DNA of 64,000 nucleotides from Escherichia coli (GCF_030384885.1 NZ_CP128613.1); one strand, 5' to 3'. Numbered from the stretch's first letter, positions 1 to 60,935 are shown. Numbers and translations: made by a program. The notes: generated by a model not told the origin, from the letters alone.

Positions 1-1488
<1,488 letters not shown>

Positions 1489-26854: not shown

Positions 26855-27967
26855 TTACTTATTCGGTTTCTCGATTTCGCCAAGTTCTTCGAGAATTTCT
26901 TCCGGTTGGTCCGTCGGCGGCGGGACTTCTTCCACCCACGCGGCAAACAGACGCCAGGAAACGGCTAACAGAACCGGACCAATAAACAGACCGATCATCC
27001 CGAAAGCAATCAAACCACCAATAACGCCAGAGAGGATCAGGATCAGCGGTAAATCGGCACCCATGCGAATTAACATTGGGCGGATGACGTTATCCAGCGT
27101 GCCAACCACACCACTCCATACCAGTAATACCGTGCCCCAGGTGGTATCGCCGGTCCAGTAAAGCCAGATGATCGCCGGAATCAGCACCGGCAGCGGGCCA
27201 AGTTGGACAAGGCAGGAGAGGATCATTAACACCGTGAGCAAAGTTGCATAAGGTACGCCGGATACCGCGAGGCCGATACCACCAAGCACTGCCTGTACTA
27301 ACGCAGTCACCACAACACCCAGCGCCACTGCGCGGATAGCTTGTGCCGCTAGCAGCACGGCGGCATCTCCACGAACGCCTGCCAGACGGGTAGCAAAATG
27401 GCGAATGCCTTGCGCCACTTGTTCACCGCGCCAGTACAGCAGGGCGCTGAAGAGAAGCATCAGCGCACAATGCACCATAAAGCGCCCGATATGCGCCGCC
27501 TGCCCAACGAACCAGGTGGTGGTGGTGCCAATATAAGGACGGAGTTTCGCCATGATCGCCGTACCCCCCATATCCAGCAAGTTGTGCCAGCCTGCATATA
27601 GCTTCGCGCCAATCACCGGAATGGTATTAAGCCACGCCAGATCGGGTAACGTCATGTCACCGCTGGAAATAGCTTTAATAAGCGGGCCGCTGCCATCGAC
27701 AATACTGTTAACCAACAAGGCAATAGGGATGATAAACACCATCACTAATAACAGCGTCATCACCAGAACGGCGAGAGAGCGGCGGCCAAACATGATCTTT
27801 TGCAAACGTAACAATACCGGCCAGGTAGCGATAACCACCGTACCGGCCCATGCGAAACCGAGAATAAAGGGTTGAACAATCCACAGACATGCCACAATCA
27901 TGATGGCTAAAAACAGCACCGAAAGCAGAATTTGTGCGACATCCCTGGGCTGACGAACATTTACCAT
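26855..27967 (-). CDS. ydiK: AI-2E/PerM-family membrane transporter
   Basis: 370-aa hydrophobic ORF. Confidence 0.9.
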   Translation of the reverse strand: MVNVRQPRDVAQILLSVLFLAIMIVACLWIVQPFILGFAWAGTVVIATWPVLLRLQKIMFGRRSLAVLVMTLLLVMVFIIPIALLVNSIVDGSGPLIKAISSGDMTLPDLAWLNTIPVIGAKLYAGWHNLLDMGGTAIMAKLRPYIGTTTTWFVGQAAHIGRFMVHCALMLLFSALLYWRGEQVAQGIRHFATRLAGVRGDAAVLLAAQAIRAVALGVVVTALVQAVLGGIGLAVSGVPYATLLTVLMILSCLVQLGPLPVLIPAIIWLYWTGDTTWGTVLLVWSGVVGTLDNVIRPMLIRMGADLPLILILSGVIGGLIAFGMIGLFIGPVLLAVSWRLFAAWVEEVPPPTDQPEEILEELGEIEKPNK

Positions 27968-28353
27968 AACTACTTTTCACCTTTTTTGTGCGTCAAATCG
28001 TCGACGCGACGTGAACACGCGAAACTCACCTGCATAATGATGAGCAATTTCAGCGGTTTTTAACAGGCCGATTCTGCCCTTAATTCTGATGGGCGTGTTA
28101 GAAAAAAATGTGGTACAACAAATCAGGCAACACGCAAACGATTTACTCGTCGTATTTCAAATTGCATGTGCTGCGGCTACGTTCGTTCACCCCAGTCACT
28201 TACTTTTGTAAGCTCCTGGAGTTCACTCGCTTGCCGCCTTCCTGCAACTCGAAATCCATAGAGTAAACAAACATCACCTTTCAGTGCGCTATTAGAAGCC
28301 TGAAAGAACAGTGTATCGATCTACATCACAGACCGCAGGAAAGGGTCAATATA

Positions 28354-31300
28354 ATGATTCCACAGATTTCCCAGGCACCCGGCGTCGTTCAATTGGTGCT
28401 TAATTTTTTGCAAGAGCTGGAGCAACAGGGTTTTACTGGCGATACGGCGACAAGTTATGCCGATCGTCTGACAATGTCGACCGACAACAGTATTTACCAA
28501 CTTCTCCCCGATGCAGTGGTATTTCCGCGTTCGACCGCAGATGTGGCGCTGATCGCTCGTCTTGCCGCGCAGGAACGCTATTCATCGCTGATCTTTACCC
28601 CCCGCGGCGGCGGCACCGGCACTAACGGTCAGGCGCTCAACCAGGGGATTATTGTTGATATGTCCCGCCATATGAACCGCATCATCGAAATTAACCCTGA
28701 AGAGGGCTGGGTGCGCGTTGAGGCCGGGGTGATAAAAGATCAACTCAATCAGTACCTGAAACCGTTCGGCTACTTTTTTGCGCCGGAGCTTTCGACCAGC
28801 AACCGGGCAACGCTCGGCGGGATGATCAATACCGATGCATCCGGTCAGGGATCGCTGGTCTATGGCAAAACGTCAGATCACGTACTTGGCGTACGCGCGG
28901 TGTTGTTGGGGGGCGATATTCTCGATACGCAACCCTTACCCGTCGAACTGGCAGAAACGCTGGGTAAAACCAATACCGCAATCGGGCGAATTTATAACAC
29001 GGTTTATCAACGTTGCCGTCAGCAACGCCAGTTAATCATCAACAACTTCCCCAAACTTAACCGCTTTCTTACCGGTTACGATCTGCGTCATGTCTTTAAC
29101 GATGAGATGACCGAGTTCGACCTGACGCGCATTCTGACGGGTTCAGAAGGGACGCTGGCCTTCATTACCGAAGCGCGGCTGGATATTACGCCCTTGCCTA
29201 AAGTGCGCCGTCTGGTGAACGTCAAATATGACTCTTTTGACTCCGCGCTGCGTAACGCGCCGTTTATGGTTGAGGCGAGGGCGCTTTCGGTAGAGACGGT
29301 GGACTCAAAAGTGCTGAATCTGGCGCGGGAAGATATTGTCTGGCATTCCGTCAGCGAGTTGATTACCGATGTGCCTGACAAAGAAATGCTCGGGCTGAAC
29401 ATTGTGGAATTTGCTGGTGATGATGAGACGCTGATTGATGAGCGGGTAAATGCACTCTGTGCGCGGTTGGATGAACTGATTGCCAGCCAACAGGCAGGTG
29501 TGATTGGCTGGCAGGTGTGCCGCGAACTGGCGGGTGTTGAACGTATCTATGCGATGCGCAAAAAAGCCGTTGGTCTGCTTGGCAATGCCAAAGGTGCCGC
29601 TAAGCCAATTCCGTTTGCTGAGGATACCTGCGTACCGCCGGAACATCTGGCCGATTATATTGCTGAATTTCGCGCGCTGCTCGACAGCCACGGCTTAAGC
29701 TACGGTATGTTCGGTCACGTCGATGCAGGTGTCTTGCACGTCCGTCCGGCGCTGGATATGTGCGATCCACAACAAGAGATTTTGATGAAGCAAATCTCTG
29801 ATGATGTAGTGGCGTTGACTGCGAAATACGGTGGTTTGTTGTGGGGCGAACACGGTAAAGGTTTTCGTGCCGAATACAGCCCGGCGTTTTTCGGTGAGGT
29901 ACTTTACGGCGAATTACGTAAAGTCAAAGCGGCATTTGATCCACAAAACCGGCTCAACCCAGGGAAAATTTGCCCACCGGAAGGTATCGACGCGCCTATG
30001 ATGAAAGTGGACGCGGTGAAGCGTGGCACATATGATCGACAGATCCCCATCGCGGTACGCCAGCAGTGGCGCGGGGCAATGGAGTGTAATGGCAACGGTT
30101 TATGCTTCAACTTTGATGCCCGCAGTCCGATGTGCCCGTCGATGAAGATCACCCAGAACCGGATTCATTCACCGAAAGGACGCGCAACGCTGGTGCGTGA
30201 GTGGCTGCGTTTGTTGGCAGATCGCGGCGTTGACCCACTCAAACTGGAACAAGAACTGCCTGAATCCGGCGTCAGTTTGCGGACGTTAATTGCCCGCACG
30301 CGCAATAGCTGGCATGCGAATAAAGGCGAATATGACTTCTCACACGAAGTCAAAGAGGCGATGTCGGGCTGTCTGGCCTGTAAAGCTTGTTCGACCCAGT
30401 GCCCCATCAAAATTGATGTGCCGGAGTTTCGCTCTCGTTTCCTGCAGCTCTATCACACACGTTATTTACGCCCATTACGTGACCATTTGGTGGCAACGGT
30501 TGAGAGCTACGCGCCGCTGATGGCACGCGCGCCGAAAACCTTTAACTTCTTCATTAACCAGCCGCTGGTGCGCAAACTCTCGGAAAAACATATTGGCATG
30601 GTTGATTTGCCGCTGCTGTCGGTCCCCTCGCTGCAACAACAAATGGTGGGGCATCGCTCGGCAAACATGACGCTGGAACAGCTTGAAGCTCTCAATGCAG
30701 AGCAGAAAGCGCGCACGGTGTTGGTGGTGCAGGACCCCTTTACCAGCTATTACGATGCGCAAGTGGTGGCGGATTTTGTCCGTCTGGTCGAAAAATTAGG
30801 TTTCCAGCCCGTGTTACTGCCATTTTCGCCGAATGGCAAAGCCCAGCATATCAAAGGCTTTCTTAATCGTTTTGCGAAGACGGCGAAAAAAACGGCGGAT
30901 TTTCTCAACCGAATGGCGAAATTGGGAATGCCAATGGTGGGCGTCGATCCAGCGCTGGTACTTTGTTATCGCGATGAATATAAACTGGCTCTGGGCGAGG
31001 AGCGTGGCGAGTTTAAGGTCTTACTGGCGAATGAATGGTTGGCAAGCATACTTGAGTCACAGCCAGTGGCTACAGTCAGCGGTGAATCATGGTATTTCTT
31101 TGGTCACTGTACCGAGGTTACCGCTTTGCCGGGCGCGCCAGCACAATGGGCTGCGATATTTGCCCGTTTTGGCGCGAAACTGGAAAATGTCAGCGTGGGT
31201 TGCTGCGGCATGGCAGGGACTTACGGACATGAAGCGAAAAACCATAAAAATTCGCTCGGGATCTATGAGTTATCCTGGCATCAGGTGATGCAGCGACTGC

Positions 31301-31410
31301 CGCGTAACCGCTGTCTGGCGACCGGATATTCCTGCCGTAGTCAGGTCAAACGGGTTGAAGGCACGGGGGTACGCCATCCTGTGCAGGCTTTACTGGAGAT
31401 TATTAAATGA
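28354..31410 (+). CDS. ydiJ: FAD-linked oxidoreductase fused to Fe-S/CCG domains (GlcD-GlcF-like; putative D-2-hydroxyacid dehydrogenase)
   Basis: 1018-aa ORF: N-terminal PCMH-type FAD-binding region (RGGGTGTNGQA), C-terminal ferredoxin-type CLACKACSTQCP and CCG motif GCCGMAG. Confidence 0.92.
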   Translation: MIPQISQAPGVVQLVLNFLQELEQQGFTGDTATSYADRLTMSTDNSIYQLLPDAVVFPRSTADVALIARLAAQERYSSLIFTPRGGGTGTNGQALNQGIIVDMSRHMNRIIEINPEEGWVRVEAGVIKDQLNQYLKPFGYFFAPELSTSNRATLGGMINTDASGQGSLVYGKTSDHVLGVRAVLLGGDILDTQPLPVELAETLGKTNTAIGRIYNTVYQRCRQQRQLIINNFPKLNRFLTGYDLRHVFNDEMTEFDLTRILTGSEGTLAFITEARLDITPLPKVRRLVNVKYDSFDSALRNAPFMVEARALSVETVDSKVLNLAREDIVWHSVSELITDVPDKEMLGLNIVEFAGDDETLIDERVNALCARLDELIASQQAGVIGWQVCRELAGVERIYAMRKKAVGLLGNAKGAAKPIPFAEDTCVPPEHLADYIAEFRALLDSHGLSYGMFGHVDAGVLHVRPALDMCDPQQEILMKQISDDVVALTAKYGGLLWGEHGKGFRAEYSPAFFGEVLYGELRKVKAAFDPQNRLNPGKICPPEGIDAPMMKVDAVKRGTYDRQIPIAVRQQWRGAMECNGNGLCFNFDARSPMCPSMKITQNRIHSPKGRATLVREWLRLLADRGVDPLKLEQELPESGVSLRTLIARTRNSWHANKGEYDFSHEVKEAMSGCLACKACSTQCPIKIDVPEFRSRFLQLYHTRYLRPLRDHLVATVESYAPLMARAPKTFNFFINQPLVRKLSEKHIGMVDLPLLSVPSLQQQMVGHRSANMTLEQLEALNAEQKARTVLVVQDPFTSYYDAQVVADFVRLVEKLGFQPVLLPFSPNGKAQHIKGFLNRFAKTAKKTADFLNRMAKLGMPMVGVDPALVLCYRDEYKLALGEERGEFKVLLANEWLASILESQPVATVSGESWYFFGHCTEVTALPGAPAQWAAIFARFGAKLENVSVGCCGMAGTYGHEAKNHKNSLGIYELSWHQVMQRLPRNRCLATGYSCRSQVKRVEGTGVRHPVQALLEIIK

Positions 31411-57257: not shown

Positions 57258-58190
57258 ATGTGGTCAGAATATTCACTCGAAGTTGTTGATGCGGTAGCGC
57301 GTAATGGTAGTTTTAGCGCTGCAGCCCAGGAGTTGCATCGCGTTCCTTCTGCGGTCAGCTATACCGTGCGTCAGCTGGAAGAGTGGCTGGCGGTGCCTCT
57401 GTTTGAACGACGTCACCGTGATGTGGAACTGACCGCTGCCGGAGCGTGGTTTCTCAAAGAAGGGCGCTCTGTTGTCAAAAAAATGCAGATCACTCGGCAG
57501 CAATGTCAGCAGATAGCGAACGGCTGGCGCGGTCAGTTAGCTATCGCAGTGGATAATATTGTCAGGCCAGAACGTACACGGCAGATGATCGTTGATTTTT
57601 ATCGCCATTTTGATGATGTCGAACTTCTTGTCTTTCAGGAAGTGTTCAACGGTGTCTGGGATGCGCTTTCCGACGGGCGCGTGGAACTGGCGATTGGCGC
57701 AACACGCGCGATTCCGGTAGGCGGTCGTTATGCCTTCCGGGATATGGGGATGCTAAGCTGGAGTTGCGTTGTTGCCAGCCACCACCCGCTGGCGTTGATG
57801 GATGGCCCGTTCAGCGATGATACGTTGCGCAACTGGCCGTCATTGGTGCGCGAAGACACCTCGCGAACGCTACCTAAACGTATTACCTGGTTGCTGGATA
57901 ACCAAAAAAGACTTGTCGTGCCTGACTGGGAATCATCGGCAACCTGTATCTCGGCAGGATTATGCATAGGGATGGTGCCAACACATTTCGCCAAACCGTG
58001 GCTTAATGAGGGGACGTGGGTAGCATTAGAACTGGAAAACCCCTTTCCGGATTCGGCATGTTGTCTGACATGGCAGCAAAATGATATGTCGCCTGCGTTA
58101 ACCTGGTTGCTTGAGTATCTCGGCGATAGTGAGACGCTGAATAAGGAGTGGCTGCGGGAGCCGGAAGAGACTCCCGCAACGGGTGATTAA
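57258..58190 (+). CDS. punR: LysR-family transcriptional regulator
   Basis: 310-aa ORF with N-terminal LysR HTH; divergent from ydhC (punC). Confidence 0.9.
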
Positions 58191-59212
58191 CGACGATAGT
58201 CTCGGAACGGGCCGTCAGCCACGGAGCGGCGTTCAATCAAGCGCGGATGCACTTCAATGGACTGCGGTTCTTCACGTTTGTTGACGATACGATCCAACAG
58301 CATGTTGAACGCTGTTTCACCCAGCGAATCTTTTGGCTGATGGATCGTGGTCAGCGCCGGCGTAAAATAGCGGGCGTTGCGCACGTTATCATAACCGATC
58401 AGCGAAACATCCTGCGGGACGCGCAGACCCATTTCATCAGCAGCACAAAGTGCGCCCATTGCCATGATATCGCCACCACAGAAGACGGCAGTAGGGCGAT
58501 GCGGCTGCGACAGTATTTGCTGCATGGCGCGATAACCGGATTCAGGTTCAAAGTCACCCTGTACAATCCAGCTTTCCGGCACCTTGATCATCGCTTCTTC
58601 CATCGCCTTCATAAAACCGGCAAGGCGGCCTGCGCCAGTGTTACGTTCCAGCGGGCCGGGGATAACGCCGATTTCGCGGTGACCGCGTTCAATCAGATAA
58701 CGCCCGGCCATGTAGCCGCCTTCGAACGCGTTATCAATGACCGCATCGGTGAAGTCAGCTTTTGCTTCACCCCAGTCCATTACCACCATTGGGATATGGC
58801 GATACTCTTCCAGCATCGTCAGCAACGGCTCTGGGTACTCAGAACACATCACCAGCAGACCATCGACGCGTTTTTGCGCCATCATCGACAGATAAGCCCG
58901 CTGTTTCTCAAGATTGTTCCACGCATTACCCAGAATCAGGGTGTAACCTTTCTGGAAGCAATTTTTTTCAACCGCTTCAATTATCTCGGCAAAATAGGCC
59001 GCTTCGCTGCTGGTCGCCAGCAAACCGATAGACTTGGTGTGGTTAACCTTCAGGCTACGCGCCACCGCGCTAGGGGAGTAGTGTAATTCTTTGATCGCTG
59101 CCCACACGGCGTTGCGCGTTTCTTCAGCGACGAAACGTGTTTTGTTGATTACGTGTGACACAGTTGTAGTGGAAACGTTTGCTCGTTTCGCTACATCTTT
59201 TATTGTTGCCAT
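58187..59212 (-). CDS. purR: Purine repressor (LacI family)
   Basis: 341-aa [68 protein letters not shown]... Confidence 0.97.
59171..59186 (-). promoter_or_regulatory. PUR-box-like operator inside the 5' end of purR coding region
   Basis: minus strand GAGCAAACGTTTCCAC, matching PurR-box core CAAACGTTT; lies in codons about 9-14 of purR. Confidence 0.6.
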
Positions 59213-59253
59213 TCCATTTCACTCCAGACCCTAACTTCAGCTCCTGCAAAATC

Positions 59254-59274
59254 GCAAGGTAAACGTTTGCCTTT
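59254..59274 (-). promoter_or_regulatory. PUR-box-like operator in purR leader
   Basis: minus strand AAGGCAAACGTTTACCTTGC, about 45-60 nt upstream of purR ATG. Confidence 0.6.
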
Positions 59275-59510
59275 ACACACCTTACGCACAACAAAAGTGT
59301 TGCGGTACGCCGGAAAAACGACACGGAGCGTCAGGAAGGGGTCAATGGCCAGTACGCAAATAGTGTAAGCGTGGAATTTTGGCCGATCTTGACGAAAAGG
59401 GGAAGTGGTAAAAACACTTATCATTATAAATGACGGGAGATTTTTTCATCACAGTGTGTAAAAATGCGTAATATCACTTTTTGTGTGGTAATAAAAAAGG
59501 AGAAAACTTG

Positions 59511-59600
59511 ATGAGCACCGACCTTAAATTTTCACTGGTAACAACGATTATCGTCCTCGGTTTGATCGTAGCCGTGGGTTTGACTGCCGCGCTGCACTGA
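59511..59600 (+). CDS. ynhF: 29-aa single-TM small membrane protein
   Basis: ATG preceded by AGGAG SD (aaaaaaggagaaaacttg ATG); encodes MSTDLKFSLVTTIIVLGLIVAVGLTAALH; below the size cut-off of the supplied ORF track. Confidence 0.75.
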   Translation: MSTDLKFSLVTTIIVLGLIVAVGLTAALH

Positions 59601-59765
59601 TTTCCTCTCGAGGGAGCGCGTTCTCCCTCGCATCTCCTTCCTGTTTGTTAGCAAAATGGCAAAAGTGTTTTCTCTTTTTGTTATTTTCATTTTTTTGTGA
59701 TTGCTGTCATGCTTTCGCCACTTTAATGAATATCGCGTAATGACGCGAAGAGGTGGAGATAAGGC

Positions 59766-60935
59766 ATGAAGATTAACTATCCGTTGCTGGCGCTGGCGAT
59801 TGGCGCGTTTGGTATCGGGACAACGGAGTTCTCGCCAATGGGCTTGTTGCCCGTCATTGCGCGCGGTGTGGATGTCTCGATTCCCGCTGCCGGAATGTTA
59901 ATCAGTGCCTATGCAGTTGGCGTAATGGTTGGCGCGCCGCTGATGACGCTTCTACTTTCTCATCGTGCCCGCCGCAGTGCGTTGATTTTCCTGATGGCAA
60001 TTTTCACGCTCGGCAACGTACTTTCCGCCATCGCGCCGGATTATATGACCCTGATGCTTTCACGCATTTTGACCAGCCTGAATCACGGAGCATTTTTTGG
60101 TTTGGGTTCAGTTGTGGCCGCAAGCGTGGTGCCAAAACATAAACAGGCCAGCGCAGTTGCCACTATGTTTATGGGGTTAACCCTGGCAAATATCGGTGGC
60201 GTTCCGGCAGCGACCTGGTTGGGCGAAACCATCGGCTGGCGGATGTCATTTCTGGCAACGGCGGGGCTGGGCGTGATTTCAATGGTAAGTCTGTTCTTCT
60301 CATTACCTAAAGGTGGAGCAGGGGCGCGACCTGAAGTGAAAAAAGAGCTGGCGGTATTAATGCGTCCGCAGGTGCTGTCTGCATTGCTGACGACGGTACT
60401 GGGGGCTGGTGCAATGTTTACCCTCTACACCTATATCTCTCCGGTACTGCAAAGCATTACCCACGCAACGCCGGTGTTCGTCACGGCAATGCTGGTGCTG
60501 ATTGGTGTCGGATTCTCTATCGGTAACTATCTCGGCGGCAAACTGGCAGATCGTTCAGTTAACGGCACGTTGAAAGGCTTTTTGTTGCTGCTGATGGTGA
60601 TTATGCTGGCAATCCCGTTCCTGGCCCGCAATGAGTTCGGCGCAGCTATTAGCATGGTGGTGTGGGGAGCTGCAACCTTTGCGGTCGTACCGCCGTTACA
60701 GATGCGCGTGATGCGTGTCGCCAGTGAAGCGCCTGGTCTGTCTTCATCAGTCAATATTGGTGCCTTTAATCTTGGAAATGCGCTGGGAGCAGCTGCTGGT
60801 GGTGCGGTAATTTCCGCTGGGCTGGGATACAGTTTTGTGCCGGTGATGGGGGCGATTGTCGCGGGACTGGCATTATTGCTGGTGTTTATGTCAGCCAGAA
60901 AACAACCTGAGGCAGTTTGCGTTGCCAACAGCTAA
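59766..60935 (+). CDS. ydhP: MFS transporter
   Basis: 389-aa hydrophobic ORF. Confidence 0.9.
   Translation: MKINYPLLALAIGAFGIGTTEFSPMGLLPVIARGVDVSIPAAGMLISAYAVGVMVGAPLMTLLLSHRARRSALIFLMAIFTLGNVLSAIAPDYMTLMLSRILTSLNHGAFFGLGSVVAASVVPKHKQASAVATMFMGLTLANIGGVPAATWLGETIGWRMSFLATAGLGVISMVSLFFSLPKGGAGARPEVKKELAVLMRPQVLSALLTTVLGAGAMFTLYTYISPVLQSITHATPVFVTAMLVLIGVGFSIGNYLGGKLADRSVNGTLKGFLLLLMVIMLAIPFLARNEFGAAISMVVWGAATFAVVPPLQMRVMRVASEAPGLSSSVNIGAFNLGNALGAAAGGAVISAGLGYSFVPVMGAIVAGLALLLVFMSARKQPEAVCVANS

Follow-up and report, generated by a model that had tools for sequence, protein, structure and literature searches.

A key question raised by the purR locus of Escherichia coli is whether the two PUR-box-like sequences at the 5' end of the gene, one in the leader and one within the coding sequence, are operators for the product of the gene itself, and what an operator inside the reading frame means for the protein segment encoded there. 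The window, i.e., the whole stretch of E. coli DNA that was analysed, is 64,000 nucleotides (64 kb) long. We hold with high confidence that the two sites, O1 and O2, are the operators used by E. coli PurR in the repression of purR itself, and their detection from the DNA is a correct re-identification of the published purR O1/O2 pair, which is already known. The features on which the argument turns are the following:

58187..59212, minus strand: purR coding sequence of 341 codons, encoding the LacI/GalR-family purine repressor of 341 amino acids (open reading frame and RefSeq annotation).

59213..59511, minus strand: purR-cydH intergenic region, with the promoter and 5' leader of purR and the control region of the divergent cydH (ynhF), as delimited by open reading frames, annotation and the conservation profile.

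59222..59225, minus strand: Shine-Dalgarno-like GGAG at -13 to -10 of the purR ATG, near-invariant in 81 species.

59257..59272, minus strand: O1, a PUR box in the purR 5' leader, AGGCAAACGTTTACCT, at -60 to -45 of the ATG.

59169..59184, minus strand: O2, within the purR coding sequence, GAGCAAACGTTTCCAC, in codons 10-15 (R A N V S T).

59177..59179, minus strand: codon 12, AAC (Asn12), which supplies the AAC of the left half-site of O2.

Window bases 58000-59800 are 100% identical to E. coli strain 2013C-4282, and the purR region is found in 5425 of the 5426 complete E. coli genomes. Residues 2-341 of the encoded PurR match the PDB purine repressor entries of the 1PNR/1BDI family with E = 3e-230, and the Pfam families PF00356, PF00532 and PF13377 (LacI HTH; periplasmic-binding-like) are found in PurR homologues. 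The protein thus combines a LacI-type HTH with a periplasmic-binding-protein-like corepressor domain, as LacI/GalR-family repressors do, and is the E. coli PurR ortholog. In the RefSeq annotation purR is neighbored by the convergent punR and by cydH (ynhF) and ydhP, which are divergent. The Shine-Dalgarno-like GGAG and O1 do not overlap. At the other end of the gene, purR and punR meet in the palindrome TTAA (58187..58190), where their stop codons share 2 nt within a gene overlap of 4 bp; an identical 4-bp overlap of purR and punR is found in Erwinia amylovora.

The sequence-only reading had placed two PUR-box-like sites at purR, one of them intragenic, and both of its strings are indeed present on the minus strand of a gene whose identity as purR is confirmed. 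The leader string, AAGGCAAACGTTTACC, is found on the purR-sense strand at 59258..59273, and the range assigned to this site, 59254-59274, brackets the full 16-bp box. The coding string, GAGCAAACGTTTCC, is found on the same strand at 59171..59184, within a site that exists as proposed and that occupies codons 10-15 instead of codons 9-14, running from position 2 of codon 10 to position 2 of codon 15 (R-A-N-V-S-T). The HTH of PurR, which we take to comprise residues 4-23, includes all the residues encoded by O2, which are placed in the HTH turn itself; the description of these residues as HTH-proximal has to be replaced. Both O1 and O2 are 16-bp imperfect palindromes with a central CG, like the PUR box ACGNAAACGTTTGCNT.

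The two sites share the core CAAACGTTT, as had been noticed, and its only two copies in the 64 kb are both at the purR 5' end, 88 bp apart. The count by itself is not significant (shuffle mean of 0.82, with at least 2 copies in 22 of 100 shuffles), while about 1e-3 pairs this close at the purR 5' end are expected by arithmetic from the same shuffles. In place of the uninformative 9-mer count, weight-matrix and conservation tests were used, the PurR matrix being trained on 27 other ChIP-chip sites from Table 1 of Cho et al. (2011; PMC3159470). By this matrix O1 is the top match of the 64-kb window, scoring 21.1 bits oriented and 20.4 bits symmetric, a level at which 0-0.01 matches are expected in shuffles. 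With the symmetric matrix O2 reaches 11.9 bits, ranks fifth in the window and, with about three such matches expected per 64 kb, is indistinguishable from chance by motif score alone. It carries a perfect GCAAACGTTT core and falls in the low part of the range spanned by the validated training sites (10.0-23.3 bits); the O2 variant GCGCAAACGTTTCCAC, present in 44 of the 81 species compared below, scores 14.3 bits. About 0.01 matches of the grade of O2 are expected, again by arithmetic, within 100 bp on either side of O1, and on motif grounds O2 is notable only through its 88-bp distance from O1.

These numbers bear on the simplest alternative, that both matches are chance AT-rich palindromes with no regulatory role. 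The 9-mer count is compatible with it, 2 copies being observed against 0.82 expected and 22% of the shuffles reaching 2. At 20.4 bits, however, O1 has a score that no match in the shuffles attains, O1 and O2 are the most conserved stretches of their respective regions in 81 species, a PurR ChIP-chip peak lies at purR (PMC3159470), and genetics and footprinting have been published (PMC5110547, RegulonDB). The conservation and ChIP data refute the chance reading, to which we assign virtually no probability.

The same scan returned a second-best PUR-box match elsewhere in the window, ACGCAAACGATTTACT at 28132..28147, scoring 16.6 bits symmetric and 18.3 bits oriented. It lies within the 386-bp intergenic region between the divergent genes ydiK (26855..27967, minus strand) and ydiJ (28354..31410, plus strand), for which a PurR ChIP-chip peak, 'ydiJ/ydiK', was reported with no motif given (Cho et al., 2011; PMC3159470). 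By its offset from O1 the match falls inside this peak, and ACGCAAACGATTTACT is therefore probably the missing motif of the ydiJ/ydiK peak.

Conservation was assessed in the purR loci of 80 other Enterobacteriaceae species (92-99% protein identity), which together with the window make 81; in the test of O2, parsimony steps were counted on a neighbour-joining tree of the remainder of the purR gene. The O1 16-mer shows 15 steps compared with a median of 71, ranks first among 285 16-nt windows of the 300-nt intergenic region, and is bordered on both sides by fast-evolving sequence. At O2, GCAAACGTTTCCAC is identical in 78 of the 81 loci, next to upstream codons, K9 and R10, that vary freely. Synonymous entropy over codons 11-15 is 0.073, compared with a gene median of 0.66, and is the lowest of all 323 five-codon windows. 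The third positions of codons 11, 12, 13 and 14 show 1, 0, 0 and 1 parsimony steps, respectively, compared with a median of 15 over the gene, and at most one step is seen at only 4.6% of the comparable third positions; the sum of 2 over the four codons (median 62) ranks first among 173 four-codon windows. Both sites are thus conserved at orthologous positions beyond their flanks or neighboring synonymous sites, and strong purifying selection acts on their DNA. The suggestion that an operator within the reading frame limits the protein sequence and DNA binding together is borne out by the synonymous positions of codons 11-14, which are essentially frozen across the 81 species, and by the confinement of O2 to lineages with Asn12 (AAC) instead of the Gly that is typical of the family.

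Immediately 3' of the O2 box, at 59156..59167, two further codons are near-invariant in the 81 species, namely codon 16, ACA (1 change), and codon 19, TCA (0 changes). Both are outside the 16-bp box, and TCA is invariant despite the existence of six Ser codons.

Selection on this DNA might be for something other than PurR binding. O1 would then be the sole functional PurR operator, and the O2 match would be a by-product of coding that is conserved for GalR/GalS, for a feature of the mRNA or its translation, or for an antisense promoter. A score of only 11.9 bits, with some three such matches expected per 64 kb, suits this reading, as does the evidence for GalR: O2 has in its right half, GTGGAAAC, a perfect half-site for GalR, and GalR was found bound at ynhF/purR by ChIP-chip and qPCR, with the peak probe at O2 (PMC5110547). 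In that study both boxes, which resemble GalR operators, were assigned as such, the GalR sites overlapping the PurR operators, so that part of the constraint could serve GalR; no GalR-dependent expression change was seen by its authors at ynhF/purR (PMC5110547). The extra invariant synonymous sites 3' of the box, codon 16 ACA and codon 19 TCA, can be counted on the same side, and so can a weak TTGCTC-16-TATTGT pair that overlaps O2 on the plus strand and would give a start near 59213, where the Rfam STnc550 model also starts.

The pattern of constraint nevertheless points to PurR. All four frozen third positions, those of codons 11-14 (GCA, AAC, GTT, TCC), carry the PUR-consensus base, and even codon 10, whose third position varies, has the consensus C there in 44 of the 81 species. 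O2 appears only with a change of GGN to AAC that completes the PurR-type half-site GCAAAC, the pre-existing GTTTCCAC half being found also in lineages that lack O2; a role for GalR leaves the creation of this PurR-type half-site unexplained. Codons 3-10 vary freely, with 6-12 changes each except at codons 5 and 8, so the constraint on O2 is not a generic effect of the 5' end. The title of the primary paper, moreover, states that autoregulation requires two sites (Rolfes and Zalkin, 1990). On balance we consider it unlikely that O1 is the only functional operator. The antisense promoter TTGCTC-16-TATTGT (59179..59206, plus strand), a candidate for feeding an STnc550/cydH RNA, was rejected in its own right for a -10 that is not conserved: codon 4 is ATT, not ATA, in 66 of the 81 species, and codon 3 varies.

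For O1, the corresponding doubt is that it is conserved as an RNA hairpin, in the 5' UTR of purR or in an antisense STnc550/cydH RNA, and not as a protein site. O1 is palindromic and folds into a hairpin, the very one drawn in the Rfam STnc550 model. In 13 of the 81 species, however, the right flank of O1 has changed from ACCT to ACGT, TCGT or CCGT, toward the PUR consensus (...CGT), so that the G now at position 15 faces the invariant G of position 2. These changes are uncompensated on the left, favoring a protein site over an RNA hairpin, and it was on this ground that the hairpin was rejected. O1 also matches a PurR matrix built from unrelated promoters and lies under the PurR ChIP peak (PMC3159470). 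An RNA hairpin as the reason for the conservation of O1 is exceedingly unlikely, and a binding site for PurR is the preferred reading.

The Rfam family invoked here, RF02081 'STnc550' (an enterobacterial sRNA), matches the plus strand at 59213..59603 with 396 bits. The match covers the whole purR-cydH intergenic region and the cydH (ynhF) open reading frame; the model begins at the base adjoining the purR ATG and ends 2 nt past the cydH stop, and one of its consensus hairpins is the O1 palindrome. From these boundaries, STnc550 looks like the cydH mRNA or the intergenic region rather than a discrete sRNA. If an STnc550 RNA truly starts at 59213, it would be antisense to the whole purR leader, with O1 inside. 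No mention of STnc550 was found in the literature searched.

In the original study, O1 is said to lie between the transcription start and the start codon and O2 in the coding region; binding of PurR to the two sites is reportedly non-cooperative, with an affinity for O1 about six-fold that for O2, the effect of autoregulation is reportedly 2-3-fold, and a roadblock is said to have been proposed by the authors. That the two sites serve purR autoregulation, as the sequence-only reading supposed, had been published already, and a PurR ChIP-chip peak at purR is on record as well (PMC3159470). Citing papers credit Rolfes and Zalkin (1990; J Bacteriol 172:5758), whose title names both sites as required, with the finding that purR is autoregulated at two sites located downstream of its promoter. 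The ChIP-chip peak at purR was obtained only with adenine, and the motif given for it, AGGTAAACGTTTGCCT, equals window positions 59257..59272 on the plus strand, i.e., exactly O1 (Cho et al., 2011; PMC3159470). O1 is the sole site named for that peak, at a ChIP-chip resolution that is too coarse for 88 bp, and PurR is described as binding within the open reading frames of purB and purR and blocking elongation (PMC3159470). RegulonDB holds a tally of PurR sites with footprint and mutation support, and the sequences of both O1 and O2 appear in Tables 3 and 4 of PMC5110547, O2 as a purR operator. The purR O1 and O2 of E. coli K-12 in RegulonDB/EcoCyc have the same sequences in the same gene and are the same object as the sites described here; the window comes from a different strain, which makes no functional difference.

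PurR binding, its dependence on a corepressor, the need for both sites and the roadblock are all taken from the literature. Based on these, we propose that a PurR dimer bound to hypoxanthine or guanine would occupy the strong O1 in the leader and the weaker O2 in codons 10-15. With both operators downstream of the purR promoter, bound PurR would act as a roadblock to elongating RNA polymerase and not as a competitor for the promoter, and the roadblock would result in a modest negative feedback of roughly 2-3-fold. The two operators would act independently, without a DNA loop.

O2 is inside the open reading frame and is hence necessarily transcribed. A standard sigma-70 promoter scan of the purR upstream region found nothing in a suitable place, and, with no convincing sigma-70 promoter predicted, the position of O1 downstream of the promoter rests on the literature. 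A relaxed scan, which gave weak candidates only, had the following as its best-conserved sigma-70-like candidate:

59376..59404, minus strand: candidate purR promoter TTCCCC-17-CAAAAT at -192 to -164, a weak candidate with 7/12 matches, from the relaxed scan and conservation.

The most conserved intergenic block after O1, CAAAATTCCACGCTTA (59366..59381, -169 to -154 of the purR ATG), contains the -10-like CAAAAT of this candidate, with TTCCCC 17 nt upstream; to judge from its sequence and conservation, the block is possibly the purR promoter or else a cydH control element on the other strand. Closer to the gene, a well-conserved stretch includes, at 59319..59333 on the minus strand, a hairpin that resembles a terminator, TGACGCTCCGTGTCG with TTTTT after it; it precedes the purR ATG by about 107-121 nt. 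Depending on the purR start site, it is a possible attenuator, if located in the leader, or otherwise an element of the promoter region.

Two LacI-family operators 88 bp apart, one of them intragenic, resemble the arrangements with lacO2 in lacZ and galOI in galE, and O1 and O2 might cooperate as lac O1/O2 and gal OE/OI do, by DNA looping over the translation start region. The distance between O1 and O2 is 88 bp in 52 species, 87 bp in 22, 86 bp in 4 and 85 bp in 3. It is thus not phase-locked, and 88 bp corresponds to about 8.4 helical turns; a spacing of 85-88 bp argues against phase-dependent looping and fits independent binding. PurR, moreover, is a dimer without the tetramerisation helix of LacI (PDB 1PNR family structures) and is said to bind non-cooperatively, both of which count against a loop. 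Looping was rejected for the variable O1-O2 spacing, which lacks the phasing of looping systems, and is in our judgment very unlikely; independent binding to the two operators is preferred.

In a family-wide survey, intragenic operators of LacI-family regulators are rare, accounting for <1% of the predicted sites, with lacZ and purB as examples. The PurR operator of purB is likewise far downstream of the promoter and inside the coding sequence, where it blocks elongation (He and Zalkin, 1992), and the repression ratio of purB is low, like that of purR; purB has a single site in its coding sequence, whereas in purR a leader site is combined with a second one in the codons for the HTH turn of the repressor itself. 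Similarly, lacO2 and galOI are auxiliary operators of the LacI/GalR family that are found in coding sequences, with the primary operator upstream. The auxiliary operators of lac and gal loop to the promoter-proximal operator through a tetramer or with the assistance of HU, whereas the spacing at purR is not phase-conserved, PurR is dimeric, and neither purR site overlaps a recognisable promoter. The canonical PUR boxes, such as those of purF, purMN and purHD, share the 16-bp palindrome ACGNAAACGTTTGCNT and bind PurR with hypoxanthine or guanine, but they overlap the -35/-10 elements, block initiation and give strong repression, while the purR sites are downstream of the promoter and give weak feedback.

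The distribution of the residue at codon 12 suggests how an operator came to be located in the HTH turn. Codon 12 is AAC in all 81 Enterobacteriaceae. Among the best 120 PurR homologues, Asn12 is found in every sequence with an identity of at least 87% to E. coli PurR, i.e., those of Enterobacteriaceae, and in a single metagenomic sequence with 80% identity, while Gly12 is found in 97 Enterobacterales sequences, all with at most 85% identity, from Erwinia, Pantoea, Yersinia, Providencia, Xenorhabdus, Hafnia, Pectobacterium, Serratia and others. Gly12 is also found in all 119 Pasteurellaceae and all 120 Vibrio PurR proteins. Asn12 and O2 occur together in 82 of 82 loci, i.e., the 81 Enterobacteriaceae and the 80%-identical metagenomic ortholog, whose locus has both O1 and O2, and Gly12 occurs without O2 in all loci examined of Erwiniaceae, Yersiniaceae, Hafniaceae, Pectobacteriaceae, Morganellaceae, Pasteurellaceae and Vibrio. 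The DNA of the Gly12 lineages reads GCN GGN GTT TCC ACC, for instance GCGGGTGTTTCCAC in Erwinia and GCAGGCGTTTCCAC in a Pasteurellaceae contig, so that the right half of O2 (GTTTCCAC) is already present and the left half-site is destroyed by GG. As the right half pre-exists in these lineages, O2 amounts to the ancestral coding sequence plus a change of GGC to AAC. In a broad sample of LacI-family representatives the turn residue is Gly in 87, Asn in 18 and another residue in 24; with Asn the second commonest, the replacement of Gly by Asn is structurally tolerated.

O1 has a wider distribution. Erwinia, Yersinia and Pectobacterium possess a weaker O1, AGGCAAACGATTAACA (11.2 bits), at the same position and with unrelated flanks, the site of Hafnia at the O1 position is AAGCAAACGATTAACA (9.9 bits), and a decayed remnant (1.1 bits) is found at that position in Providencia. 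No PUR box was found near purR in Haemophilus, in another Pasteurellaceae contig or in V. cholerae, which agrees with PMC13328217, where Ravcheev et al. (2002) are cited for the lack of the autoregulatory site in V. cholerae and Pasteurellaceae. In Vibrio parahaemolyticus a PUR-box match, ACGCAAACGATTAAAT (14.2 bits), is found at about 431..446 of the locus, -270 from the purR ATG, and has no counterpart upstream of purR in V. cholerae; it may represent lineage-specific autoregulation in some vibrios or a site of the upstream gene.

From these distributions we infer that O1 is older than O2 and may have been ancestral to the Enterobacterales in a weaker form, and that O2 would have arisen in the ancestor of the Enterobacteriaceae when codon 12, set in a GCN...GTTTCCAC coding sequence that already existed, changed from GGC to AAC. 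O2 looks like an innovation of the Enterobacteriaceae that is tied to the Gly-to-Asn change. It is an evenly balanced question whether selection for the operator drove this replacement in the HTH turn, by the two transitions that turn GGC into AAC, such that the DNA encoding an HTH turn became a target of the same HTH. The co-occurrence of Asn12 and O2 is an observation from which we draw neither causal direction, and it is a small evolutionary footnote that is possibly unreported. A metagenomic PurR-like protein with 89% identity has Asp at the turn (ADVS), whose codon could be GAC, a possible intermediate on the way from GGC to AAC; the protein, which is encoded on a 1.6-kb contig and whose N-terminus is atypical in other respects, may be chimeric.

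The two-operator autoregulation of purR has been textbook material since 1990, and its re-identification has little discovery value. The locus is an instance of dual coding, in which five codons specify the HTH turn of a repressor and, at the same time, a binding site for that same repressor. The cost of this overlap is seen in four synonymous sites that are frozen across a bacterial family and in a lineage-specific replacement of Gly by Asn. As a dated gain whose ancestral state is visible in sister families, O2 would make a teaching and test case for the origin of regulatory sites inside genes.
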